Positions 1 to 11,813 of a DNA stretch of 15,950 nt are shown one piece after another. Source of the DNA: a virus. Its lineage: Duplodnaviria; Heunggongvirae; Uroviricota; Caudoviricetes. Within the stretch, counting starts at the first letter, position 1, and each line of letters begins with the position of its first letter. A program made the translations under genes and the position numbers. The stretch lies in the IMG/VR virus record IMGVR_UViG_2657245448_000017; one strand, 5' to 3'. The notes under the pieces are model-generated. The model did not search any database. It saw only the letters and a program-made list of their open reading frames with translations, and had not been told where the DNA came from.

Positions 1-582
1 TCCCAGTTTAACCAATAACTCATCTCGATTTGGAATCATAAGCGCTTTTCCAGTCAAGCAACGTTTTCTGGTTCCTTGTTCAAGGGATAAAAAAACAGGG
101 TTGTTATTAAGTCTCTCAGTTATTATATCTTTTTGTTCATGATAAAAATCCAATGCTTTCGTATTATCACTAGATGTAAATAACTCAATTCTCTTTACAC
201 AATCATTCATGTGCATGACATTCAACTTTGCTGACCACTCCTCAGTTGAATCTGGATTCTCAGATAAATACATAAACAATAACTCAGCTTCCAGAATCGC
301 TCTTACATGAGGTGCAATCGCCGAAAAATCCCAAAAGTCATAATCCCGCTTAGCCCATCTTGATTTTGGTACGTTGGAAATCATTATTGAAGCATGAATG
401 CAGATTCGTGAAAAAATGTATGTAGACCACCCTTTAAAAGCCTCAGCCATTCGCACACCAACCCCCTGACTTACAGCATTCGCTTCACATACAGCTTTAT
501 CAAACTCCCTTAAGTAGTGATGGAAGTCATCCATCGAAAAATCGTTTCGTTCAAGTGGATTTTCGGGATTATCTATTTTCAT
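1..582 (-). CDS. Hypothetical AT-rich cargo (moron) protein; start codon present, C-terminus truncated by the window edge
   Basis: Open frame on the minus strand from ATG at 582..580 (hand-translated MKIDNPENPLERNDFSMDDFHHYLREF...) to position 1 with no stop, 194 codons. AGGTGA Shine-Dalgarno 3-4 nt upstream. About 40% GC against about 50% for neighbours. Absent from the ORF track, presumably because it runs off the edge. Confidence 0.5.
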   Translation of the reverse strand, partial: MKIDNPENPLERNDFSMDDFHHYLREFDKAVCEANAVSQGVGVRMAEAFKGWSTYIFSRICIHASIMISNVPKSRWAKRDYDFWDFSAIAPHVRAILEAELLFMYLSENPDSTEEWSAKLNVMHMNDCVKRIELFTSSDNTKALDFYHEQKDIITERLNNNPVFLSLEQGTRKRCLTGKALMIPNRDELLVKLG

Positions 583-630
583 ACTTCACCTATTTAAAAC
601 AATTGGTTTAAATCGGTGAATTATAACGCA

Positions 631-653
631 AAAACCCGCTCATTGGCGGGTTT
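631..653 (-). terminator. Candidate intrinsic terminator downstream of the Q-like gene (tR'-like position)
   Basis: 8-bp GC-rich stem AAACCCGC (632-639) / GCGGGTTT (646-653) with a 6-nt loop; on the minus strand the stem is followed by TTTTTGCGTT. Confidence 0.5.
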
Positions 654-745
654 ATAAAACTTTGGCAACATATCAAATACGCTTCAAATATGGCTTATTT
701 TGTTGCATTTTGCAAGCGCGTTTGAAGGAGATAGTGAAATTTACT
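654..745 (-). promoter_or_regulatory. Probable late promoter / qut-like region between the Q-like gene and the terminator
   Basis: Position only, by analogy to lambda PR'-qut-tR'. No confident -35/-10 pair identified. Confidence 0.3.
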
Positions 746-1456
746 TCACATTTCTGCCACTTTGAGGGCTTCTTCTTCCTCATAGTATTCAAGAGCCATT
801 GCCAACGCAGATTCATCAAGCTGGGTAAAAGCGGCCTTTAACCCAGCCCAGTGCCCTGAATAGACACGCAACCATGTCGAACGATCAACGCTAACCATGC
901 GGGCCAACGCTGCACCAGCATAGTCTTTATAGGTTTCATTATTTCTGGTTGCGGCAATTTCCTGCCCTGCCAGCCATACCAGGCCAATCAGTTTCTTTAC
1001 TACGCGCTCCTGAAGGGAATTATCACCCAGGCATTTCTGATAAGTTTTCCAGACGTATTCACACATCATCACTTGGTGCTTATAGCTAAGGTCAAAACCG
1101 TAGCAGTACCGCAACCAGGCCTGCTGGTATCCACTAAGCGCGGACACTGCCCTACGCCACGGCGCGGACTCAAATTCCGCATCTTTTATCGGCGGCATTG
1201 GCCTGCAGCGGCTGCGTGTTTCCAGTACATACAATGGCGCGGAAAGCGAGTTAACAAAGCGAGGCCCCTTCTCTCCTTCGAGTTCGACGAGATGAATTCC
1301 ACGGCGCGGGGTGGCATTTTTGTCTGCTGGTGGGTGTTCACTGAAAGCCTCAAGCTGCCCTTTTGTTCCCCCAGAGAGGTCAGGTAGCGCGCGGCGCAAT
1401 TCTATTCTTACAAAATTCAGGTCTTGTTGATTCATGCTTCTTTGCGCTCCATACAC
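746..1456 (-). CDS. Putative late-gene antiterminator, Q-like
   Basis: 236-aa ORF at the distal end of the early-right operon, immediately before a terminator and late-region cargo. Motif WLRYCYG recalled from enterobacterial Q-family proteins. Start is GTG at 1456 or ATG at 1435. Family assignment is from memory. Confidence 0.5.
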   Translation of the reverse strand: MYGAQRSMNQQDLNFVRIELRRALPDLSGGTKGQLEAFSEHPPADKNATPRRGIHLVELEGEKGPRFVNSLSAPLYVLETRSRCRPMPPIKDAEFESAPWRRAVSALSGYQQAWLRYCYGFDLSYKHQVMMCEYVWKTYQKCLGDNSLQERVVKKLIGLVWLAGQEIAATRNNETYKDYAGAALARMVSVDRSTWLRVYSGHWAGLKAAFTQLDESALAMALEYYEEEEALKVAEM

Positions 1457-2452
1457 TTAAGCTTTCGCAATTACGCCGATCGCCAGCGCCCGATCCATAA
1501 AACGCAGTAGCAGCTCAAGCTGCGTACCATGCTTCTGCTCGAATGCCGATACATCGGCGTGTAACTCGTCGTGGCACTCTCTGCACAGAGGGATCACGAA
1601 GAGGTCATGGGCTTTTGTTGCTGTACCACCCATACCGTGCCCTACGATATGGTGCGGATCATCTGCTGGCCGTCGGCAACACTCACAGGGTTGTGTTTTT
1701 ACCCAGCGGGTGTAAGTCTCATTTATCCAGCGGCGTCGCTTTGGCCTGAGCATGAAAGATTCCGGAGACTCCGGATCAACAGAGAGCGTGAGGATCTTCT
1801 TCGCCTTCTCCTGCACGAGGCTGGTTGCAGTAGCGGAAGGCACAATGTCGCTTTCCCTCATGACCGAGCGGATCTTCTCATCCGGAAGGCGTAGCCCCTT
1901 GTGCGCAACGCTTTCCGGAATAACATCAGCCAGGTCGTTTCTGACCATCCACCAGCACAGTTCCGGAAGCGTCAGGATATGCGACTCGGGAAAACCAGAA
2001 TCACGCCGAATGACTTCCAGAATCCAGGATACCAGGTTTCCTGCCGCTATACCTGCAAGCCGTTCGGTATGCTGCCCCGACAAAGTGTGATCGCAATGCC
2101 AGCACAGGCGAATACTTCCTGGTGGGTGCCGCATTGTTGTGAAGTTCTTGTCGTGCCACGATGAATGTGGCCACTGGCATTCAAACCGAGAACTCAGCCA
2201 CTGCTCAAGGGAAGGAAGTCCACCGGCACGCTGAATAACCCGCTCATTCCCGAAGACCTGCCGCATTACCGGATCATCAGCCAGCGGCTGAATGGCTGCC
2301 GGAACAGCCCCGGTACTGAATGACGCCATTTCTTCTGGTTCAGGCTCGAGCAGAACGCGACCACGCATGAAGAGGTGCATCAGTTTAGCACCGGGACGGA
2401 ACAGCACAATCCCCATACGATGGGCGATCTCGGGGGTAAGCAGAGCTCTCAC
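1457..2452 (-). CDS. DUF968-family protein (YdfU-like) with Cys/His-rich HNH-like C-terminus
   Basis: C-terminal PCECCRRPADDPHHIVGHGMGG...CRECHDELH motif. Proposed GTG start at 2452 forms a GTGA overlap with the upstream stop and follows GGGGG; the alternative start is at 2485. Confidence 0.7.
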   Translation of the reverse strand: MRALLTPEIAHRMGIVLFRPGAKLMHLFMRGRVLLEPEPEEMASFSTGAVPAAIQPLADDPVMRQVFGNERVIQRAGGLPSLEQWLSSRFECQWPHSSWHDKNFTTMRHPPGSIRLCWHCDHTLSGQHTERLAGIAAGNLVSWILEVIRRDSGFPESHILTLPELCWWMVRNDLADVIPESVAHKGLRLPDEKIRSVMRESDIVPSATATSLVQEKAKKILTLSVDPESPESFMLRPKRRRWINETYTRWVKTQPCECCRRPADDPHHIVGHGMGGTATKAHDLFVIPLCRECHDELHADVSAFEQKHGTQLELLLRFMDRALAIGVIAKA

Positions 2453-3132
2453 GCGACCTGCCCCCTGGCAATGTGTTCTGCCCACAGTCCACCAATCCAG
2501 CGCACGCCTTTCGCAGTGAAACGTGCCTGGCTGAATGCATGATTTGAGGTTACGGATGTGCCGGTTTTCACTTCAAAACGGCCCGCATCAATATGCTGAT
2601 ACCGTGGGGTCATCGTTCCACCAAGGCGATACATGATGTCGTTCTCAAGGAGGAATAACCGCAGATCTGGCTCTTTTGCCTTAAGCAGTTTTGCCACCTG
2701 GCGGAATGACATTGACCCACTGGCTGTACAGTACCGATCAACAAACGCTACCTTCGGCGCCGCGGCAGCCAGTTCGTTAGTCAACTGCTGTTTTTGTTCT
2801 GCAAGGTCAGCGGCAAGACGTAGGGCTTCAGAGAATGATTGAGGAATCGTCTGCTGCTGTGCCTGCTCAAGCTCCTGCCAGCGATCAACCAGACGCGCGG
2901 TAAACTCCGGCGACAGCTGCGCGACAACGATATAACTGTCCCGCTTCCCTATCAGATAAACCGATACCGACTGATTGAGGTGATTTTTAACTTCCCCCAT
3001 TGGGGGGAGTTCAATAACACCGCGCTCTGCCAGGCGTTCAATGGACCGTTTAACATGGTCATGTCGTGATTCCACCAGCTCAGCAATATCGCTGCTGGAC
3101 ATGGTTAATGCTGTTGTTGCTAATTGGCTCAT
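2449..3132 (-). CDS. Rha-family regulator / antirepressor with KilA-C (ANT-like) C-terminal domain
   Basis: N-terminal MSQLATTALTMSSSDIAELVESRHDHVKRSIERL resembles the Rha domain; C-terminal half resembles KilAC antirepressor domains. Start chosen at ATG 3132 with GGAG six nt upstream; the track start at 3171 lacks an SD. Confidence 0.7.
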   Translation of the reverse strand: MSQLATTALTMSSSDIAELVESRHDHVKRSIERLAERGVIELPPMGEVKNHLNQSVSVYLIGKRDSYIVVAQLSPEFTARLVDRWQELEQAQQQTIPQSFSEALRLAADLAEQKQQLTNELAAAAPKVAFVDRYCTASGSMSFRQVAKLLKAKEPDLRLFLLENDIMYRLGGTMTPRYQHIDAGRFEVKTGTSVTSNHAFSQARFTAKGVRWIGGLWAEHIARGQVA

Positions 3133-3145
3133 ACTTTTCTCCATA

Positions 3146-3532
3146 TCAGGCGGCCGCACCCGCCGGTTCATATCTGCTGATCGTTATCTCTACCCGACCT
3201 TTCGGCACTACGGGTCCCCATTCCACCAGCATGCGCTTAATCTGGCTGTCATCTTCCCAGACACCCGCATGCGTCAGCGCGTCAAACAGGGCTTTGTTGT
3301 AATTATCGATATCCCGGCGGCGCGCATCCGGCGGGTACAGAGTGATTTCTACCGCAGCCAGTTCAGTCGATGGCTTCGGGAGACGTCGTAATTGCTCAAT
3401 GATCGCCACGCAGGCAGCGCTCTGGTATTTACGGCCTTCAGCGCTAATGAGGTGACGACCAGCCAGCGCCCCCTTGTTAGGAGCGCGCCAGTAAGTGTTC
3501 ACGCTGGGTGGAAATGGGAGTATGAGCCTCAT
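3146..3532 (-). CDS. rusA: Holliday junction resolvase RusA
   Basis: 128 aa with the N-terminal PPSVNTYW motif and RRRDIDNYNKALFDALT acidic catalytic region typical of RusA. GGAGG SD six nt upstream of the ATG. Confidence 0.9.
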   Translation of the reverse strand: MRLILPFPPSVNTYWRAPNKGALAGRHLISAEGRKYQSAACVAIIEQLRRLPKPSTELAAVEITLYPPDARRRDIDNYNKALFDALTHAGVWEDDSQIKRMLVEWGPVVPKGRVEITISRYEPAGAAA

Positions 3533-3646
3533 TAAAAGCCTCCGTCATAATTCCTGAAACATACCTCAACTTTCCCGCTATAGTGACGAACACGTTGAAC
3601 AACATCCGAAATAGGCGCTATACCGGCAGGGCGATAAAAGACTGTT

Positions 3647-4969
3647 TCACGCATGAGTTACCCCCTGCATGCTGTCGACAAGACCACGCGCAATTGTGAT
3701 TATTTCGCTGGTGGACATTCGTTCCAGCCAGAGTTGATTGATGTTGGCTTTCAGCTTGTTCTGCTGTGATTCATCCAGCATGTCAGCACCATCCACCTGG
3801 TCGAATACAATTCCAACCTCCAGTGGCCATATACGGGACTCGGGAAGCTGATCGGCTACTGGTTTAGCTTTCTCACGGATGTGCATGCGGATCTGGCGAA
3901 TATTGGACCAACTGGAAACATCCAGGCTTCCCATAGCTGCAATGAAATCAGTACTGTTCATGCCATATTCACCAGATGCTTCAAGGGCAACAGTACGAAT
4001 ACGTTCCGACATATCCAGGCGCGCAGCAGCGTCATCGAATTCAATCGACAACAGCCACTCATCCACACCGAGCAAAATACTCTCACGAATAAGCAGCTTC
4101 GCTTTGTCGATCGTTAATGGTGATACCTGAGTGAATTCCGGTGCTTCGACAGAATCCGCCGCCCAGGTATGCCCAAACTTCGATTCACTGAATGTGTATT
4201 CTTCTTTATCGCCGAACGCAGCTCTAACGCATGCCCACGCCTCAACACCGCTGATATCAAAAATATCTTTCTGGGTAAGTGGCAACTCTGCTTCTGGCTT
4301 GTCAGCTACAGGTGGTGTGGCGGTTGCTGGCTGAGGTTTGCTGGTGGCAAACTGTGCCAAAGCCATAAACGCGCGCCCTTTTGTTTCCAGTTCTGTGCGG
4401 TTGATATAGCTGAATCGCTCGCCACGCCATGACTTATCGAATACAGCTATGGCTCCGGAAAAAAACGCGCTGGTGGGCTTCTGTTTTTCGTCAGCAGGTA
4501 CAAACCACACTGGCAGATCGAAACCAATGCGCCCGCGAATGAATACAATGTGATCGGCATCTTCCGGCCACCACGTTTCACTCGGCGCGGCTTTTATCAG
4601 GAATACATAGCGACCGCCCTTCTCGCGCTGGGTTGCTGCGTACTTCATGATGTGCGTCATACCAGTGATCGCCTGTTTCTCGTGGTACTGCGAGCGGCTA
4701 TATGGAGGGTTGGCAAAAGCCGCGCCACCCAGTTCTGCCAGACGTTCAGACCAGTCCTGCGTCAGTGCGTTATCTTCGGCGGTGTACCATGCCGGGCATT
4801 TCGCGTTGTCGTCGTCAGCAAACAAGTCCAGAACTAATGGACCAAATAGCGCGTTGATACCCCAGAAAAGCAGATCCGGTGTCCGCCACTGATCGCCAAC
4901 TTCTTTCAATTCGTGAGCTGGTTTTGAACGCAGTTCGGCCAGCGCGCGGCAGTATTTGTTTTCAATCAT
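3647..4969 (-). CDS. Phage Dam-like N6-adenine DNA methyltransferase fused to a C-terminal domain of unknown function (about 240 aa)
   Basis: N-terminal WRTPDLLF...LDLFADDDN...NPPY motifs match the phage Dam family. Total length 440 aa is roughly twice the usual size, and the C-terminal half has no motif I recognise. Confidence 0.8.
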   Translation of the reverse strand: MIENKYCRALAELRSKPAHELKEVGDQWRTPDLLFWGINALFGPLVLDLFADDDNAKCPAWYTAEDNALTQDWSERLAELGGAAFANPPYSRSQYHEKQAITGMTHIMKYAATQREKGGRYVFLIKAAPSETWWPEDADHIVFIRGRIGFDLPVWFVPADEKQKPTSAFFSGAIAVFDKSWRGERFSYINRTELETKGRAFMALAQFATSKPQPATATPPVADKPEAELPLTQKDIFDISGVEAWACVRAAFGDKEEYTFSESKFGHTWAADSVEAPEFTQVSPLTIDKAKLLIRESILLGVDEWLLSIEFDDAAARLDMSERIRTVALEASGEYGMNSTDFIAAMGSLDVSSWSNIRQIRMHIREKAKPVADQLPESRIWPLEVGIVFDQVDGADMLDESQQNKLKANINQLWLERMSTSEIITIARGLVDSMQGVTHA

Positions 4970-5898
4970 CCTCTGAATCCCTCTGGAATTTTGGTATCTA
5001 CCGGGCCGAACTTCATCGGGTCATGTTTCTTCTCGCCCCAGCTTTCACGAGGGGGACGGCCTTTCTTATCCCAGCGGAGCCCGCTTTGCAGATAACCCTC
5101 AAATTTTTTCGGCCCAAACAGAGTTTCAGGCCGCATGTACTGATACTGCGCGTCATTGCCGTTCCAGTGTTCATGCTTGAGGTCAATCACCAGCGTTAAG
5201 TCGCTGACGGTATAACCTTCACGCAGACGGGCACGTATGTTTTCCAGAGAGGTTTTAGATTTCTGGTACCGGGAGCCGCTTACCTGGTTCAAATGAGTTA
5301 AAACCAGGATGGCGTTATCAGTGATCAACACCTCAGGGTCTGGTTGCGGCGCAACCGGACAAGAGGGGTTAATGATCTGTTTGTGGTGATCTGAGTAATG
5401 ATCTGTATAGAGAATAGGTTCCGCGACTTCGCGGTTAGGGTTCCGCGATTCTGCGTTTTCGGTTCCGTGATTCTGCGGAATAGGTTCCGCGACTTCGCGT
5501 TTCCCGTTCCGCGATTCTGCGGAATCCAGCGTTGCCGGGAATAAAACATTGATTAGCGCTTCGCCATTGATACGGTAATGCGTCTTTTTCGTGCCGTTTA
5601 CCTGTCGCTGCGCCTTTTCAACAACCCCTGGTAGCCAGCGGGTACAAATCTTGTTTACCAGGCGCTGCACCTGATCTTCACTCACGCCGCGAATCTCTGC
5701 CGCAAGCTCGCTGTGCTCTTTATAAAACCAGCCATCATTCAGATCTGATTTACCAGACCAGAACACGAGCTGGTTTAGCACAGCGCCCAAAGCATGCGCC
5801 TGCTGATCGCCGGAGAAATAATCGAGGTACGGGACCGGAATGGTGATGCTATTCCTTTGCCCCGACAGCGATTGAACGATTTCAAATATCTGGCTCAT
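4966..5898 (-). CDS. Replication initiation protein, lambda O-like, with conserved phage C-terminal domain
   Basis: 310 aa. C-terminal region (DNAILVLTHLNQVSGSRYQ...YTVSDLTLVIDLKHEHWNG...) resembles the conserved C-terminus of phage replication initiators. Five iterons lie in the middle of the gene, as ori-lambda does within O. Confidence 0.7.
   Translation of the reverse strand: MSQIFEIVQSLSGQRNSITIPVPYLDYFSGDQQAHALGAVLNQLVFWSGKSDLNDGWFYKEHSELAAEIRGVSEDQVQRLVNKICTRWLPGVVEKAQRQVNGTKKTHYRINGEALINVLFPATLDSAESRNGKREVAEPIPQNHGTENAESRNPNREVAEPILYTDHYSDHHKQIINPSCPVAPQPDPEVLITDNAILVLTHLNQVSGSRYQKSKTSLENIRARLREGYTVSDLTLVIDLKHEHWNGNDAQYQYMRPETLFGPKKFEGYLQSGLRWDKKGRPPRESWGEKKHDPMKFGPVDTKIPEGFRG
5417..5522. 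repeat. Five direct iterons with exact 22-bp periodicity (candidate origin of replication)
   Basis: Copies of GGTTCCGCGA(C/T)T(T/C)(C/T)GCG begin at 5417, 5439, 5461, 5483 and 5505. Each contains an inverted CCGCGA..TCGCGG element, and both flanks are AT-richer. They encode a repeated AESRN..REVAEPI peptide in the O-like protein. Confidence 0.65.
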
Positions 5899-6067
5899 GA
5901 TCGTCCGTTATCTCCCTGAACTTTCGCCTGAAATGCTCAAGTGGGCTGAAGCATTCGTGCGGGTAGCCATCACGCAGATAGATAACGCGCTGTGTTTCAG
6001 GTTCCCAGCGGATAACACGGACTGGCACTCCACGGTAGTCTTTGAACCTTCGGTTAAGTTCGCGCAC
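5882..6067 (-). CDS. Small hypothetical protein (61 aa)
   Basis: GTG start at 6067 with GGAGGG ten nt upstream; protein-like composition; overlaps the O-like start by 17 nt. Competes with a plus-strand ORF at 5897..6091. Confidence 0.3.
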   Translation of the reverse strand: MRELNRRFKDYRGVPVRVIRWEPETQRVIYLRDGYPHECFSPLEHFRRKFREITDDHEPDI

Positions 6068-6239
6068 AGGCGTTTTGCCCTCCGGTTGTAGACCCCCACA
6101 ATTGAAACCGCCCTACTGTGGTTACACGGAACCCAGCGGTTTGATAATCTGCGTTCATACCGAAACAACGGAGTACCCGAAACAGGGATCATCCTGAGTT
6201 GCGGTAGACGGTTAAAAGCCGTTAAACTATTCATGCGGA

Positions 6240-6788
6240 TTATTTCTCCATACTCGAAGAGTTGTTCGCCAAGGCGCCCGGAGCTGCACACTCGCGGGCG
6301 TCACTCTTTTCTGGAAGGCAGTAAACACGGGCAATCAAATTCAGAAAGGTCATCAGAGTTACCCTGAACTGATATGCAATGTCGTTAAGGCTCTGCCACT
6401 CACCCTTATCAACAACCCCATCGTCGATATACCAACGGTAAGCGTTGACCAGTTCTCCTAGACGCCCCACCAGCTCGGCCAGCTTTAAGCCAATTTCTTC
6501 GTTTTCGTCATCTGGCACCGCACCCGGAACGTGTATCCCGTTATCTGTTTGACGAGAAAACGCATCAGCTATGTAGCTGACACCGGCGGCTTTCTGTAAC
6601 ACCATCGCCCATCCCATAGGGAAGATCTGATCCCCGTCGACGCGAAGGCGGTTAAACAATGCGTTCTCTGTCACCCCCAACCATTCCGCCGCTTCGGCGT
6701 AGCCACCAGGCAGATCGGTAATCGTTTTTTTAATCGCTACCACCAGCCAGGCTGGCTGACGTTCGACTTTCCATTGCGGTTCGTTCAT
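6240..6788 (-). CDS. Putative CII-like lysogeny regulator (CP76-type) with N-terminal helix-turn-helix
   Basis: HTH-like segment GGYAEAAEWLGVTENALFNRLR and loose resemblance to phage 186 CII-type proteins. Start chosen at ATG 6788 with GGAG eight nt upstream; the track start at 6875 lacks an SD. Confidence 0.45.
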   Translation of the reverse strand: MNEPQWKVERQPAWLVVAIKKTITDLPGGYAEAAEWLGVTENALFNRLRVDGDQIFPMGWAMVLQKAAGVSYIADAFSRQTDNGIHVPGAVPDDENEEIGLKLAELVGRLGELVNAYRWYIDDGVVDKGEWQSLNDIAYQFRVTLMTFLNLIARVYCLPEKSDARECAAPGALANNSSSMEK

Positions 6789-6873
6789 TACTGCAACTCC
6801 ATTATTGGCGCCGAACTTCCTGACGGTGATAGCCTGCAAGCTCTCACACCAACAGAACCGAAGGAGGTTCGAC

Positions 6874-7110
6874 ATGTCTGTAAATTCACTGCCTTACGGC
6901 AAGTCTCCCGAAGAAGCCGCTCACGATCTGGCCATGAATCTTGTCTTGTCTGGTCACTTCAAAACATTCCAGAAGTCGCCAGAAGAGGTTTTTCAGTTGA
7001 TCACCAATGCAGAACTGGTCTTCAGTGAGCTTTACCGAAACAAACTGAAGGAAATAGAGTCCGCCAGATCAAAAGAAACCGAAGAGCAATATCAACGTAC
7101 GCAGTGCTAG
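6874..7110 (+). CDS. Hypothetical 78-aa protein encoded antisense to the early-right operon
   Basis: Near-consensus SD AAGGAGG (6861-6867) six nt before ATG 6874. Protein-like sequence MSVNSLPYGKSPEEAAHDLAMNLVLSGHF.... Its stop codon overlaps the stop of the convergent gene 7107..7352. Confidence 0.45.
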   Translation: MSVNSLPYGKSPEEAAHDLAMNLVLSGHFKTFQKSPEEVFQLITNAELVFSELYRNKLKEIESARSKETEEQYQRTQC

Positions 7111-7352
7111 CCATGAACAAACGAAAGATAGAACGTTGAATAACCACGGGCGGCGCTTTCAACTGCCGCCTGTATTTCCTCCGCGGATCTCCCTCTAAGG
7201 ATCATCTCGTTTATCAGCTCGCCAATAAGGGGAAGGACAATTGGCTGGAATGACATGTAAACCCGCATCTTTCCTTCGGAAATGGTTATTTGTCCTTCAT
7301 CGCTTTTAGCGGTCACGCTGTTTGTATCTTTTGTCTCGCTGCTGTTACCCAC
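7107..7352 (-). CDS. Hypothetical 81-aa protein downstream of cro
   Basis: GTG start at 7352 with GAGGAG six nt upstream; amphipathic helical-looking sequence; same strand and operon as cro. Confidence 0.4.
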   Translation of the reverse strand: MGNSSETKDTNSVTAKSDEGQITISEGKMRVYMSFQPIVLPLIGELINEMILRGRSAEEIQAAVESAARGYSTFYLSFVHG

Positions 7353-7381
7353 GGTTAACTCCTCTCTTTTGTGGTTGTTGA

Positions 7382-7624
7382 TTAAGCTGCTGAATCTGCA
7401 GACTTTTGGAAAACATCAGGACGCAGTCTTTCTTTTGGGATGCCAGTAACGCTCTCAATGTACTGAGATTGCTTTATTGGCGACCTTTTTTCTCTGTTGA
7501 GCCAGTTCCATACCTGTTGTTGTTTAACTTCCTTCCCGGAACTTGCAGTTAGTTTCCGGGCTAACTCAGACTGGCCACCAGCAGTTTCAATTGCCTCTGA
7601 AAGGGCTAACTGCTCAGGTGTCAT
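7382..7624 (-). CDS. cro: Cro-like HTH regulator (YdaS/Cro family)
   Basis: 80 aa from ATG 7624 with AGGAG seven nt upstream. Motif ETAGGQSELARKL...QQQVWNWL resembles Cro/YdaS-type HTH proteins. Divergent from the CI-like gene across an operator-rich spacer. Confidence 0.7.
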   Translation of the reverse strand: MTPEQLALSEAIETAGGQSELARKLTASSGKEVKQQQVWNWLNREKRSPIKQSQYIESVTGIPKERLRPDVFQKSADSAA

Positions 7625-7761
7625 AGTTTTTCTCCTGTGGTTTGAGGTAAAAGTTGTTGGCACCATTGATCATACAACCTAAACAACTTTTACCACAACT
7701 TTTAGGTGTTGGAAAGCTAAAACATAAAGTTGTAATCTCTCCTAATACAGGGGGTAAAGTT
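7625..7761. promoter_or_regulatory. OR-like divergent promoter/operator region between cro and cI
   Basis: Five perfect copies of AAAGTTGT or its reverse complement (7650-7657, 7683-7690, 7696-7703, 7726-7733, 7756-7763). Candidate PR -10 TATGAT on the minus strand at 7668-7673. Confidence 0.6.
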
Positions 7762-8448
7762 GTGAATACACTTGCGGAACGACTAAAAATAGCTAGAGAG
7801 AAGAAAGGCATGAGCCAGGCTCAGTTAGCCGAGCTAATAGGCCTGTCTCAACAATCTGTGGCGAAAATTGAAAATGGAGATACGCTTCAACCTAGAAAGA
7901 TCAAAGATATTGCGAAAGCTTTAGATGTATCCCAAAAATGGCTACAGCTCGGAATTGAGGAGAATGGCTCTATTTCTGATTTTGTAGTTGAGGAACTTGA
8001 AGAAGCAAAACTTGATCCTGAAGTATTTGCCAACATACCCGTTCTCGATGTTGAGTTCTCTGCTGGCAATGGATGTGAAGCCGAAATTGTGGAATCAGTT
8101 GTTGATTCGTTCCCTCTTCGTCGTTTCGATCTTAGAAAAGCTGGAGTCAGTCCTGCTAACGCAAGAATCGTAAAGATTTGGGGCAACAGCCTTTTGCCAG
8201 TATTGAATAATGGGGATCATGTCGCGATTGACATGTCACAGTCGAAACCTATCAGAGATGGTGATTTATACGCTGTTAGAGATGGAGTTTTACTTCGAGT
8301 TAAAGTTCTTATCAATCAACCAGATGGTGGTTTGATACTGCGGAGTTTCAACAAAGAAGAGTACCCGGATGAAGTACTCAACTTTGATGAAAGAAGAGCC
8401 AGAATACACGTTATTGGTCGCGTGTTCTGGTCTTCACGTTCATGGTAG
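7762..8448 (+). CDS. cI: CI-like prophage repressor (N-terminal HTH, C-terminal LexA/S24-type autocleavage domain)
   Basis: HTH QAQLAELIGLSQQSVAKIENG. C-terminal domain with Ala-Gly site (FSAGNG), Ser in GNSLLP and Lys in LLRVKVL, alignable to lambda CI. Start chosen at GTG 7762 after GGGGG (7750-7754), giving 228 aa; the upstream TTG at 7654 lies in the operator region. Confidence 0.85.
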   Translation: MNTLAERLKIAREKKGMSQAQLAELIGLSQQSVAKIENGDTLQPRKIKDIAKALDVSQKWLQLGIEENGSISDFVVEELEEAKLDPEVFANIPVLDVEFSAGNGCEAEIVESVVDSFPLRRFDLRKAGVSPANARIVKIWGNSLLPVLNNGDHVAIDMSQSKPIRDGDLYAVRDGVLLRVKVLINQPDGGLILRSFNKEEYPDEVLNFDERRARIHVIGRVFWSSRSW

Positions 8449-9321
8449 AGCGTGAAAAAGCATTTCTTCTGAAATGATTTTTAACTTAGCCCCTTCATCA
8501 TCTCTATATGAGACTGCTTTTTCTATTTTCCTTCCGTGACTGGAGAACTTCCAGTCACGCGAGGAAAGAGTACCAATTACGAGAAAATCAATTCTCTTTG
8601 TGATTCCGCTGGAAATCAGTCCATTATTCTTTTTAATTAGGTCTTCAACATGTGCTCTCTTTCCTGCCAAAAAAACACCCGTTAAGCAAAATGTTTTATT
8701 TTCAACAGAAACTTCAGCAGTATTATCTAATGGTAATTTAGTAGAAAGCCCATCTACGACGCCGCTTGCAAGGTCACAACCAGTAAAATCTACCAGCGCC
8801 TTGTGTAGATTTTCACTTTCTTCAGTGGTGATGATCCCATCGCTCAGAATCTCTTTTACTAAAGCGTATAGTTCCTTTCCTGGATAATTACTTTTTAGCG
8901 CCCCGTTCTGTGTTAACCACCAGTCCAGGTATCTCACTTCTTCTTCACTTAAGGTTCGATCTGATATTAAACCCTTGCAAAGACCATTCAACAGATGCAG
9001 ATCTGACTCACTGGAGAATAAATCCACATCGGGTATATCGAGTATTTGTCTTTGTATATCATTAAGATGCAGTTTTAATTCACCACGCTCATCATCAGAA
9101 ACAACACCATCGGCCAGTATTTTAGAAACCCTAACACTTAGACTCTTGATAACACCATTTCTAATGGTTTGGTTGGCTTCAAGTAGCCAAGTATCAAGAT
9201 ATAGCACCTCTTCATCCCGCACATGTCCATCGGCAAGAATCCCATCAATAATGCTGATTAAATTTGCAAAAAGCTTATTTCTATTTTGTGTGTAGTTAAA
9301 AACGTAGAGCTTGTCTTCCAT
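8440..9321 (-). CDS. Tandem TerB-like repeat protein with C-terminal BRCT domain (uncharacterised)
   Basis: 293 aa from ATG 9321 with AAGGAGG four nt upstream. Four copies of an (I/L)L(A/S)DGxxx(D/E)EExxxL motif resembling the paired motifs of TerB domains. C-terminal 80 aa (KTFCLTGVF...IDFLVIGT...) aligns by eye to the LigA BRCT domain. Convergent with cI, overlapping it by 9 bp. Confidence 0.7.
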   Translation of the reverse strand: MEDKLYVFNYTQNRNKLFANLISIIDGILADGHVRDEEVLYLDTWLLEANQTIRNGVIKSLSVRVSKILADGVVSDDERGELKLHLNDIQRQILDIPDVDLFSSESDLHLLNGLCKGLISDRTLSEEEVRYLDWWLTQNGALKSNYPGKELYALVKEILSDGIITTEESENLHKALVDFTGCDLASGVVDGLSTKLPLDNTAEVSVENKTFCLTGVFLAGKRAHVEDLIKKNNGLISSGITKRIDFLVIGTLSSRDWKFSSHGRKIEKAVSYRDDEGAKLKIISEEMLFHALP

Positions 9322-9557
9322 ACAGCCTCCTTTTTTGAACATCCTTACATTCAGACGCCCCACAATCAAACCACATAAAGTTGTTGACATAACCATTATT
9401 CACAACTAAATTACACCTTAAAGTTGTTATTACGATTTACAACATTACAACTAGCCATAAGCAACAGCGAACAGGCAGGACGCCCACGAAGTAGCCGCCG
9501 GTGGCGTATGAATAACCGGATGATTCGCTCAATAAAGTTAGGTAGGGGAATTTCACG
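9322..9557. promoter_or_regulatory. OL/PL-like operator-promoter region
   Basis: Plus-strand promoter with -35 TTGACA (9384-9389), 17-bp spacer and -10 TAAATT (9407-9412). Operator 8-mer AAAGTTGT at 9377-9384 and 9420-9427, plus partial copies at 9402-9410 and 9447-9452. Confidence 0.55.
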
Positions 9558-9770
9558 ATGAATGCAGCACAACGCCGAAGGGCTTATCACAAACACCCGA
9601 AAGTTGGGGACACTGTAATTTTACGAGGCATTCCTCGCCTAGTACTGGGTCCGTGTACGTTCAACAGCCTTACTGGCGAAGAGCGTAGCAAACCTTCGGT
9701 AAGCCGTGTCAGGGTTCAAATGACTGGCGGCTCAACAGCTGCACCACTCGTACGTAATTTAAAGTTTTAG
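9558..9770 (+). CDS. Putative N-like antiterminator with N-terminal arginine-rich motif
   Basis: 70 aa. N-terminus MNAAQRRRAYHK parallels the lambda N ARM (MDAQTRRRERRAEK). First gene downstream of the PL-like promoter. Confidence 0.45.
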   Translation: MNAAQRRRAYHKHPKVGDTVILRGIPRLVLGPCTFNSLTGEERSKPSVSRVRVQMTGGSTAAPLVRNLKF

Positions 9771-10070
9771 CGATAAACAGGTGTCTTCGGGAGGGGTTAC
9801 GGGCTGGAGTGACTACCAGCATCGACAGCTCTATCCGACGAAACGGAACCGTCTAACCCGCGGTTGTCGGTGAAAAGTACCGTAGGGATGCCAGCTAGTC
9901 ACTGGCCCCCGCCCGAAGATACCTACCACCGCGCCTGATGTGGTTAAAAGCAGGCCAAAGCAATAACAAGTACTTCCCTGTTCTGGCGGCCCGGTGTTTT
10001 CCCACTTGTCCGGTCACCGCCAGCCTTTTTCAGGGCACAACGACGAGAGCATTGACGAGCAAGGCATAAG

Positions 10071-10150
10071 TGCTGGTTCGATTCCAGACAGTCCCATTCT
10101 GTTGGGAGGGTTGGGCAGGGAAAAGGTTCGTTCGATTCGAACACCGGCAG
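10071..10150 (+). other. tRNA-like element (T-arm plus acceptor stem), non-canonical, inside an ORF-poor island
   Basis: Perfect T-arm GTTCG-TTCGATT-CGAAC (10126-10142). A 7-bp acceptor pairing TGCTGGT (10071-10077) with ACCGGCA (10143-10149) includes one G-U pair. D-stem-like pairing is present, but the anticodon arm is non-canonical (6-nt loop) and there is no encoded CCA. Confidence 0.25.
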
Positions 10151-10556
10151 TGCTCTCTTCGTTGTGGTGAATGCGCAGGCTGATGCGCTAAACCGTGAGG
10201 GAGTGTCCCGAAAGGGTGCGTCACTGGTAATCAACCCATGCCGGAATATCGTAGTACCGGCCACCACAACCAAATCACGCTTAGGACCGTGATAACCGTA
10301 GTTCCAGTATTGCTGTGTGTAGTCTTGGCGGTACCAGGGTCTTCAACCTTATGCAAGGGGGACGAAGATAATGTTCTACCTCGGTACCGCCCTTTTTACG
10401 CAACAGAAAAGGGCATCACCGGGCGACGGGCTCATAACCCAATCCACCCTGGCAAAAGACAGCGGTCTCTGCAAGCCGCCGACCAATGCAGGTGTCCTTC
10501 TCTGTTGTGTATGGAGAAAACACGGCGGTGGAAGCCGCCTTAACGAGGGTAAAACC

Positions 10557-10928
10557 ATGAGTAATGACCGCATGACCGTAGTGCCAGATTTTCTTGGCGA
10601 ACTGGATGCCGGCGTGTTCATGAACAAAATCGCGGCAGCACTTAATACCACCGCGCTTGGCGTTCTGAACAATGGCAACAAAGGCAAAGTAGTCCTCACC
10701 TTTGATTTTGAGCGTATGGGTAATTCCGTTGAAGAGAAGCGCGTGAAGATCAAGCACAAGCTGAACTACAGCACCCCGACACCGCGTGGTAAAGCCTCCG
10801 AAGAGGACACAACCGAAACCCCTATGTGGGTTAACAAAGGCGGGAAGCTCACCATCCTGCAGGAAGACCAGGGCAACTTGTTTACCCTCGGCGGGGATCC
10901 GGACGGAAAGTTACGCGCGGCGAAATAA
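10557..10928 (+). CDS. Hypothetical early-left protein (possibly YfdP-like)
   Basis: 123 aa from ATG 10557 with GAGGG seven nt upstream; the longer track ORF (10371) begins inside the ORF-poor island. Family assignment is tentative. Confidence 0.55.
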   Translation: MSNDRMTVVPDFLGELDAGVFMNKIAAALNTTALGVLNNGNKGKVVLTFDFERMGNSVEEKRVKIKHKLNYSTPTPRGKASEEDTTETPMWVNKGGKLTILQEDQGNLFTLGGDPDGKLRAAK

Positions 10929-10985
10929 GCCGCGATTGATAGCCCTTAGTTTCAGTTTTTCTACATCTATCTTTAAGGAATTTTT

Positions 10986-11813
10986 ATGTCTCAGTTAGAC
11001 AGCGGTACCTTCAAGCAGGTCAAAGACCTGGTTCTTTCCGGTTATCACCTGAATGATATTCATGGCCTGGCTTGCCCGACCGCATTACTGCCAGAGGGTA
11101 CTGGCGTTGAAAGCCTCGAGCGTTTTTCTCTGGAGCGTTTCCGCTTCCGCGGTGCCATGACCACGACCAGCATTGAAGATTTTGCTCGTTATTCAAAAGG
11201 CTATGCCAGCGCCACTGAAAAAGCACGCTGCTTTATTGACGCTGACCATATGACAGCCCGTTCAGTATTCAACATTGGCACACTCGATAACCCCGGTCAT
11301 GCGGACAATGTTGCATCCATCACCCTAAAACAGACCGCACCATTCCGTGCTCTTCTCCAGATCAACGGTGAACGTCTGAAACAAAAACAGATCGCCGAGT
11401 GGCTGGAAGACTGGAGCGATTACCTGCTGGCGTTCGATGCTGATGGCAATACGATGCAGATTTCACAAGCCGCCCAGGCTGTTCGTCGTATAACTATCCA
11501 GCAGGCAACCCAGCAGGATCATGAAGACAGCGATTTCAGCGGCAAAAAATCGCTTATGCAGAGTATTGAAGCCAGCAGCAAAGACGTAATGCCGGTAGCG
11601 TTCGAATTCAAATGTGTGCCGTATGAAGGTTTAGGCGAACGCCGCTTTAGCTTACGCAACAGTTTGCTTACAGGTGATGAACCTCGTTTTGTACTGCGCA
11701 TAGTACAACTGGAAGCCCAGGAAGAAGCTATCGCCAACGAATTCCGCGATTTGCTGATCAGCAAGTTCGAAGGTGAATCAGTGGAAACTTTCATCGGTAA
11801 CTTTAAAGCCTAA
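10986..11813 (+). CDS. YfdQ-like protein (DUF2303-like), uncharacterised
   Basis: 275 aa, AAGGAA SD five nt upstream. Length and position match the CPS-53 prophage yfdQ as I recall it; no motif checked. Confidence 0.6.
   Translation: MSQLDSGTFKQVKDLVLSGYHLNDIHGLACPTALLPEGTGVESLERFSLERFRFRGAMTTTSIEDFARYSKGYASATEKARCFIDADHMTARSVFNIGTLDNPGHADNVASITLKQTAPFRALLQINGERLKQKQIAEWLEDWSDYLLAFDADGNTMQISQAAQAVRRITIQQATQQDHEDSDFSGKKSLMQSIEASSKDVMPVAFEFKCVPYEGLGERRFSLRNSLLTGDEPRFVLRIVQLEAQEEAIANEFRDLLISKFEGESVETFIGNFKA

Follow-up and report, generated by a model that had tools for sequence, protein, structure and literature searches.

What kind of gene occupies the junction at which a lambdoid prophage passes from its antiterminator gene to its late genes, and does it share more than its position with the Shiga toxin genes of Stx phages? 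The question is raised by the left end of a stretch of 15,950 nt from the IMG/VR record IMGVR_UViG_2657245448_000017 (the window, to the whole of which all positions refer unless another contig is named), where an AT-rich open reading frame (ORF)—here called the cargo gene—follows the gene of the late-gene antiterminator Q. A first-pass annotation of the sequence had compared this gene with the Shiga toxin gene (stx) and had proposed Q-dependent expression. The cargo gene is placed at the Q/late-gene junction of a lambdoid prophage. As judged from sequence comparison, it is a foreign single-gene cassette under selection, standing between Q and the lysis genes with a predicted intrinsic terminator on either side. 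The interpretation given in this article, held with middling confidence, is that of a mobile, terminator-flanked moron cassette consisting of a single gene, for which a role in conflict or defence is, at low confidence, the likeliest one. The locus is thus of a known kind, the occupant is new and comes from an uncharacterised family, and its positional conservation is unusually strict.

Position and origin of the cargo gene

As the first-pass annotation had noted, the Q gene is located directly upstream of the cargo gene on the same strand; the distance is 163 nt. It is identified by its profile match to Phage_antiter_Q (PF06323, E 3.7e-36). An identical copy of the protein in Escherichia coli is annotated as "bacteriophage antitermination protein Q," and the antitermination-protein-Q name is also borne by Salmonella and Citrobacter proteins of its 90% cluster; a relative of the window Q protein was not found by sequence in the PDB. 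Going upstream along the minus strand, the genes are, in this order, Q, DUF968, Ant/Rha, RusA, a 440-aa Dam-domain protein, a Phg_2220_C replication protein, and a YdaS/Cro-like protein. The opposite strand carries an S24 repressor, genes of the recombination region, and a lambda-type integrase at the right end of the window. From this gene content, the window therefore comprises the early-right arm, the immunity region, and the left arm of a lambdoid prophage, which adjoins icd in complete assemblies.

To the left, the cargo gene runs out of the window after 194 codons. The Q protein of the window is encoded in identical form on many contigs, and one of these, L037, provides the leftward extension for which the first-pass annotation had called: it equals window positions 1–11435 at 99.98% identity and reaches 9.3 kb past the left end. 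The full cargo ORF (L037 10854–11705) measures 852 nt and encodes 283 aa (contigs L033–L038, in which the N-terminal 194 aa are identical to those of the window). The gene order in L037 is Q, cargo, terminator, a convergent 220-aa gene, holin_8, holin_3_7, GH19 endolysin, a DUF4145 gene on the other strand, HNH, terminase, and portal. Herein, the terminator (L037 11730–11753) has a 10-bp stem and stands just 3′ of the cargo stop codon, and the lysis cassette—holin_8, holin_3_7, and GH19 endolysin—begins 990 nt past that codon.

The slot position is strongly conserved across prophages with differing Q and lysis modules. A scan of IMG/VR gave 23 viral loci with relatives at 48–99% identity. A recognisable Q-like gene lies at most 235 nt upstream on the same strand in 17 of them, a holin or endolysin gene lies downstream in most of the 23, and a single locus, on a GC-rich and probably Pseudomonas-type contig, shows none of the markers used. 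The cargo gene directly follows Q and precedes the lysis genes in five annotated prophage lineages, each with a Q protein of its own: a PF06323 protein in the window-type lineage, a protein of the DUF1133/PF06530 type in that of Hafnia alvei, a 201-aa Q-like protein in that of Enterobacter (related loci carry one that is ∼30% identical to the window Q), a 131-aa PF06530 protein in that of Citrobacter freundii, where a DNA methyltransferase gene is inserted between cargo and holin, and a 140-aa PF06530 protein in that of Yersinia bercovieri. By sequence, at least four groups can be distinguished among the flanking Q genes, and the lysis cassettes are of two types.

Terminators on both sides are a recurrent part of this arrangement. 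They were searched for in 26 related loci with a custom finder for hairpins followed by a T tract, which covered 260 nt upstream; random 260-nt windows from the same loci served as the control. An upstream terminator occurs in 24 of the 26 loci, many of which are closely related to each other, and usually ends 39 to 98 nt 5′ of the ATG. A downstream terminator occurs in 23 loci, beginning 5 to 34 nt past the stop codon in 21 of these. Such a hairpin is present in 15–17% of the random windows. Across the loci, at least eight distinct upstream and at least nine distinct downstream hairpin sequences can be told apart.

According to the sequence comparisons, the upstream hairpin is a recombination joint at which prophage homology switches. 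In Nissle-type prophages of E. coli, the match to the window extends from the Q gene through the hairpin and ends directly past the T-run; a megablast search with positions 1–760 against 5,426 complete RefSeq genomes of E. coli gave a match limited to 630–760. In the Hafnia prophage, the Q gene is an unrelated one, yet the hairpin and the sequence following it are common with the window. In the E. coli Nissle 1917 prophage (L001, 1003–3684), the same slot is filled by a 68-aa ORF, an SDH-family Clp-fold serine protease, a hypothetical gene, and a DNA methyltransferase. Within this group of prophages, the slot thus takes variable cargo.

The cargo gene is horizontally acquired and of foreign composition. 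Its part within the window has a GC content of 0.375 (0.325 at third codon positions), compared with 0.512 for Q and 0.495 for the rest of the window, and it shares the rank of most AT-rich stretch with a cI/BRCT patch at 7600–9400. This contrast recurs in the related prophage loci, with the GC-rich L058 as the exception: the cargo GC is 0.35 to 0.38 in all enterobacterial ones versus 0.45 to 0.54 for the locus. In Vibrionaceae homologues, the GC of the gene equals that of the host, which, together with the values of 0.35 to 0.38 in Enterobacterales, suggests that the gene was imported from a low-GC gammaproteobacterial pool. Composition, the gene order of L037, and positional conservation hence bear out the earlier view of a foreign cargo gene between Q with its terminator and a lysis cassette, and the AT-rich ORF with its Shine–Dalgarno (SD) sequence is found as it had been described (194 codons, with AGGTGA 3 nt before the ATG).

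The encoded protein, its family, and its distribution

Homologues of the cargo protein have a length of 278 to 295 aa, and their source names are all "hypothetical" or "DUF5677 domain-containing." Searches with the 194-aa fragment against Pfam (E ≤ 0.01), NCBIfam, PHROGs, and PADLOC gave nothing usable. Full-length homologues score 16 to 29 bits against PF18928 (DUF5677), the gathering score of which is 27.1 bits; herein, the 98% identical P0001 reaches 21.6, P0010 28.9, and P0012 and P0014 ∼25.5 bits. A profile of 27 close homologues led to 1057 cluster representatives (50% identity) among 1.84 billion proteins. Among 71 diverse relatives linked by this profile, 64 match PF18928 (best E 7.7e-18), fused relatives reaching 35 to 46 bits, and NCBI names several subfamily members DUF5677. 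On the strength of these 64 matches, the cargo protein is therefore a divergent DUF5677 branch, that is, it belongs to the superfamily by transitive homology.

The AlphaFold (AF2) model of the protein is an all-helical bundle with a predicted local distance difference test score (pLDDT) of 87 and a predicted template modelling score (pTM) of 0.86. No hydrophobic segment is present at a Kyte–Doolittle mean cut-off of 1.6 over 19 residues, and the protein is predicted to be soluble, all-α, and cytoplasmic, with no signal peptide. Since its homologues also give no match to a lysis family of Pfam, and the lysis cassette stands further downstream in L037, the first-pass statement that the gene is neither a holin nor an endolysin gene is upheld; the full-length protein is a member of the DUF5677 superfamily and not an ordinary late structural or lysis protein. 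A Foldseek search with the model gave no match in the PDB or BFVD, and a search of PDB sequences with the family profile did not rise above noise (E ≥ 0.08).

Residues S38, P72, W84, D85, R94, E98, Y105, D127, R131, F164, S208, H212, and G229 are conserved throughout the family, a set that resembles a binding or catalytic site. Further marks of the close subfamily are an invariant R59-x3-H63 and a basic C-terminal tail, RKGxKSKFxLGPK, both of which are missing from the wider family; across homologues with 47–86% identity, 43 columns are invariant. The HEPN superfamily comprises all-α four-helix nucleases and regulators with the catalytic motif Rx4-6H. It had been among the folds suggested at first pass and was rejected, because this motif is not among the family-wide conserved residues and R59-x3-H63 is invariant in the close subfamily only.

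The ratio of nonsynonymous to synonymous substitution rates (dN/dS) is 0.04 relative to the Hafnia allele and 0.10 to 0.16 for more distant pairs with unsaturated dS. The protein is therefore clearly functional and under strong purifying selection. Intact ORFs with 45–99% identity occur across Enterobacterales, Vibrionales, Alteromonadales, and Pseudomonas.

Among the top 150 relatives, several carry an additional domain. Seven share a C-terminal domain of ∼110 aa, five an N-terminal one of ∼180 aa, three have an MtlR-like N terminus, one is fused to a RES domain, and one has a hydrophobic C terminus. The C-terminal partner (P0090, P0094, P0105, P0138, P0152, P0156, and P0172) contains the motif FW.I..NG.PAT and the N-terminal partner (P0085, P0088, P0100, P0104, and P0116) a motif close to RMNLxxGRDRLRMA. 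These two recurrent partners have no match in Pfam or the PDB, and when three of the additional domains were searched against the PDB, the outcome was either no match or MtlR at E 0.4. The fusions, as read from sequence, hint at conflict systems without proving them.

Outside prophages, members of the same subfamily are found at 45–52% identity in a range of settings. In Vibrio rotiferianus (L020, 2765–3885), the gene forms a single-gene cassette between two attC-like repeats of ∼126 nt; eight copies of the repeat occur within 7 kb of this contig, which is therefore part of a chromosomal integron. Another member resides inside a 9.8-kb island that is bounded by a duplicated 3′ end of tRNA-Ser and contains an integrase and insertion sequence (IS) elements. 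In Pseudomonas putida (L021, 5335–6846), the gene is located 34 nt downstream of a serine recombinase gene, and in L025–L027 it is divergent from a resolvase gene, with AIPR and DUF4238 genes and an integrase nearby. On plasmids of Shewanella, Pseudomonas, and Photobacterium it stands between IS elements or near a RelE/ParE module, and in Photobacterium leiognathi the chromosomal context looks ordinary. Close relatives also occur in free-living marine Vibrionaceae, Shewanella, Rheinheimera, and P. putida. No recurrent partner gene was found across the contexts examined. The adjacency to serine recombinases in P. putida and L025–L027 echoes a report on Bacillota, where DUF5677 is enriched beside serine recombinases that mark defence loci (PMC12632615).

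The subfamily is rare, with five loci in 185,579 species-representative genomes. Neither a tblastn search with the cargo protein against 50,697 deposited phage genomes nor a megablast search of phages with positions 1–760 gave a match. The 90% cluster of the cargo protein, on the other hand, is represented on hundreds of contigs of Klebsiella, Citrobacter, Raoultella, and E. coli.

Expression and likely role of the cassette

The coordinates of the features discussed in this section are collected in Table 1. An intrinsic terminator for minus-strand transcription had been placed at 631–653 by the first-pass annotation, and at the sequence level these coordinates are correct. The minus-strand hairpin at 632–653 reads AAACCCGC-CAAUGA-GCGGGUUU and is followed by UUGCGUU. 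Its folding free energy amounts to −12.1 kcal/mol (z −2.6), and 5 of 200 shuffled sequences fold as well. It was not listed by a standard terminator scan because the tail rule of that scan counts T residues after the fully extended stem; the custom finder described above does detect it. Rfam gave nothing at gathering score, and its sub-threshold matches to attenuator leaders only mirror the terminator hairpin.

Table 1. Features around the cargo gene and further genes of the window that are described in the text
Feature	Position	Strand	Remarks
Cargo gene	1–582	−	Codons 1–194 of 283; ATG at 582–580; open to base 1; other 89 codons past the left end
SD-like AGGTGA	586–591	−	3 nt 5′ of the cargo ATG; from sequence
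Inverted repeat over the cargo SD	581–624	−	Fold and repeat search
TATAAT, consensus −10 hexamer	620–625	−	Directly 3′ of the terminator T-run; from sequence
Terminator hairpin with T tract, candidate tR′	627–653	−	Stem 632–639/646–653, loop 640–645
Best pR′ candidate, TTGCAA-17 nt-CATATT	687–715	−	By eye, 8 of 12 positions
Q late-gene antiterminator, 229 aa	746–1435	−	PF06323, E 3.7e-36
Dam-domain protein, 440 aa	3647–4969	−	Dam covers residues 19–199 only
S24 cI-like repressor	7654–8448	+	In the AT-rich patch 7600–9400
BRCT-domain protein, 318 aa	8440–9396	−	In the AT-rich patch; convergent with the repressor

The spacer between Q and the first late gene had been described as promoter-sized. 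It measures 92 nt from the Q stop codon to the hairpin; the only sigma-70 match inside is weak and lies under the threshold of the promoter scan, and no convincing pR′ or Q-binding element was found between Q and the hairpin. As a predicted pR′ candidate, the TTGCAA-17-CATATT element would yield a terminated leader of ∼50 nt. On the other side of the hairpin, TATAAT is a perfect −10 hexamer with no good −35 element, and the promoter scan called no promoter between hairpin and cargo ATG. The Hafnia version has TACAAT at this position, and related loci contain TACAAT or TATAAT-like boxes. TATAAT is a possible weak autonomous promoter of the cargo gene.

The inverted repeat over the SD has the form TTCACC(G)ATTTAAA-N8-TTTAAATAGGTGAA, with 14-nt arms and one mismatch in the window, where the 14-nt arm is found nowhere else. 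It folds with −10.7 kcal/mol (z −3.9), a value that is reached by none of 200 shuffled sequences. An allele with 98% identity (L002) has the repeat without any mismatch; the Hafnia, Citrobacter, Enterobacter, and Yersinia versions lack it. As RNA it could sequester the SD and act as a translational brake; as DNA it could serve as an operator.

In lambda and Stx phages, transcripts from the late promoter end at tR′ unless Q modifies the polymerase. Transferred to the cassette, transcripts from a constitutive late promoter would stop at the upstream hairpin in the lysogen. After induction, the Q-modified polymerase would pass both hairpins, so that the cargo gene would be co-transcribed with the holin and endolysin genes; such Q-dependent read-through on induction, as had been proposed at first pass, is plausible. 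A downstream terminator is pointless for a Q-modified polymerase and therefore, together with TATAAT, suggests that ordinary polymerase transcribes the gene also. In the lysogen, a low level of autonomous cargo transcription would then start from a weak promoter such as TATAAT, and the downstream terminator would keep it out of the holin genes. The sequence thus suggests that autonomous transcription, as in classical morons, modifies the purely Q-dependent model. The protein would act in the cytoplasm through R94, E98, D127, R131, S208, and H212, and the basic tail of the subfamily may contribute to its action.

As to what this action serves, the proposal, made with low confidence, is that of a one-protein conflict between genetic elements, for example, the exclusion of other phages or an abortive defence against them. 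Conflict or defence is the best guess because the gene is distributed over mobile elements, is linked to serine recombinases, and has defence-type neighbours, and because one relative is fused to a RES domain. Several points weigh against it. A defence gene is expected to be on in the lysogen, yet the only clear upstream signal is a terminator; the autonomous promoter is a bare −10 hexamer without −35 element, and pR′ is not convincingly identified. The relatedness of many of the 26 loci means that their terminator counts overstate independence. PADLOC (PADLOC-DB 2.0) assigned no family to the fragment or to eight homologues and none recurrently to the 71 relatives, and the literature on DUF5677/PF18928 shows no function for any member. 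In a defence screen of Enterococcus faecalis, the one DUF5677 ORF tested for defence so far was challenged with six phages and was not among the five protective candidates; the family is otherwise mentioned in a list of markers from machine learning. A narrower version of the conflict reading is tentative and on balance rather doubtful: the subfamily may represent new one-protein factors of inter-phage conflict or immunity that are placed under the late antitermination switch and shielded on both sides by terminators—silent or made in traces in the lysogen, and in bulk at lysis commitment—and that, for example, exclude or sabotage co-infecting or co-resident phages. This would explain why the slot is kept as the surrounding Q genes and lysis cassettes swap.

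An alternative is a strictly Q-dependent late accessory function. Such a protein would be made after induction from the first late gene and would aid the lytic cycle of its own phage, for example, by neutralising a host defence or a co-resident prophage, by shutting down a host process before lysis, or by acting on progeny DNA beside methyltransferases. In orientation, the gene always follows the late operon, and it is always preceded by a terminator which should be passed by Q-modified polymerase only; there is no scan-level promoter between hairpin and ATG, the SD is buried in a hairpin in this allele, which would limit basal translation, and DNA methyltransferases stand in or share the slot in Nissle, Citrobacter, and other loci. 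If the gene were transcribed by antiterminated polymerase alone, however, a conserved downstream terminator would serve no end. Integron cassettes, plasmids, and islands, which have no phage late operon, harbour the subfamily just as readily, and its absence from the deposited phage genomes searched argues against a common part of the lytic programme. This explanation is accordingly rated as improbable, albeit with a substantial share of credence. A selfish passenger without benefit, kept because the flanking terminators are recombination joints common to lambdoid phages, would fit the homology switch exactly at the upstream hairpin and the rarity of the subfamily among species-representative genomes. 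It is quite unlikely in view of the low dN/dS with saturated synonymous sites, the ORFs that are intact over 45–99% identity in four groups, and the size of the wider family with its at least 1057 cluster representatives.

The position of stx, the AT-rich foreign composition, and the abundance of the 90% cluster in isolates of Klebsiella, Citrobacter, and E. coli would all suit an Stx-like virulence or toxin cargo, made at induction, freed by lysis, and acting on a eukaryotic host or on competing bacteria. This is the least probable of the explanations and unlikely on present evidence: the protein has neither a signal peptide nor a hydrophobic segment and no match to a toxin family, PDB entry, or fold, its close relatives live in marine and other free-living bacteria such as Shewanella, Rheinheimera, and P. 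putida, and in the annotated loci its gene stands alone, without a partner that resembles a B subunit or serves secretion. The earlier comparison with Stx phages is hence retained for the position, a conserved slot between Q and the lysis genes, and abandoned for the toxin, for which signal peptide and homology are both lacking.

Neighbouring genes and relation to known systems

The Q ORF, as listed, has a GTG at 1456 as its first codon and directly adjoins the DUF968 ORF, and its ATG at 1435 gives a 229-aa protein. This ATG is the likely start because databases hold that 229-aa protein. In the Dam-domain protein further upstream, the C-terminal 240 aa are without a family match. The AT-rich patch at 7600–9400 (GC 0.39–0.43) consists of the S24 cI-like repressor gene and a convergent gene for a BRCT-domain protein, which has 31.6% identity to Orf2 of Vibrio phage K139 and kp3 of phage Kappa. 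The pair is also present in the Hafnia prophage (L003). As the BRCT gene occupies the position of rexAB in lambda, it is a candidate for a moron expressed in the lysogen.

Three further accessory genes are located near the start of the late operon. A very AT-rich convergent gene for a protein of 220 to 239 aa with an N-terminal hydrophobic segment stands between cargo and holin (L037 11925–12587, minus strand). It has no Pfam match and occurs only in window-type prophages (L033–L039 and L046), as a second independent cargo in the slot. An obligate partnership of this membrane protein gene with the cargo gene was considered and rejected, since the Hafnia, Enterobacter, Citrobacter, and Yersinia prophages have the cargo gene but lack the membrane protein gene. 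A 218-aa DUF4145 gene on the opposite strand, between the endolysin region and HNH/terminase (L037 14376–15032, minus strand), is likely another moron. In the Enterobacter prophage L005 (8855–9931), a 358-aa gene with a RelA_SpoT domain lies just past the lysis cassette.

The Q-to-lysis junction is of general interest because it couples expression to prophage induction; it is this coupling that makes the production of Shiga toxin dependent on induction. An uncharacterised family that keeps one slot across many mosaic backgrounds provides a testable context for DUF5677, and the locus is a candidate for phage defence or induction-linked phenotypes in clinically relevant Enterobacteriaceae. Even if it confers no phenotype, it represents a clean, terminator-bracketed moron, the upstream terminator of which doubles as a recombination joint.

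The locus order in phages 933W and H-19B is Q, pR′, tR′, cargo (stx), and lysis genes. The locus described here has in common with that of stx a late-strand cargo of foreign composition that is located between Q with a predicted terminator and a promoter candidate on one side and the holin on the other, followed by the lysis cassette. It differs in that the product is unrelated to AB5 toxins, cytoplasmic, and encoded by a single gene, and in that the slot is without tRNA genes. Lambdoid morons in the sense of Hendrix and Juhala have a deviant GC content, a promoter of their own, and a factor-independent terminator, and they are inserted between conserved genes of an operon. The cargo gene resembles them by its deviant GC, by the terminator directly 3′ in most related loci, by being a single gene, and by the modules of other content that take its place in relatives. 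Its promoter candidate, however, is a TATAAT without −35 element, and the retention of one and the same slot across all Q groups and both types of lysis cassette is unusual. Compared with PF18928 as a whole, the protein keeps R94, E98, D127, R131, S208, and H212, with the allele scoring below the cut-off of the family as described above.

Anti-phage proteins encoded by single prophage genes are exemplified by BstA (PMC8585504) and Tai (PMC11364771), and defence cassettes have been described from integrons (bioRxiv 10.1101/2024.07.02.601719). Unlike BstA and Tai, the cargo gene stands behind the terminator of the late operon and not beside the repressor gene, and it has no relation to a PADLOC family. 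Like these systems and the integron defence cassettes, it is one gene in an accessory slot of prophages, and its subfamily extends beyond them to integrons, plasmids, and islands beside recombinases.

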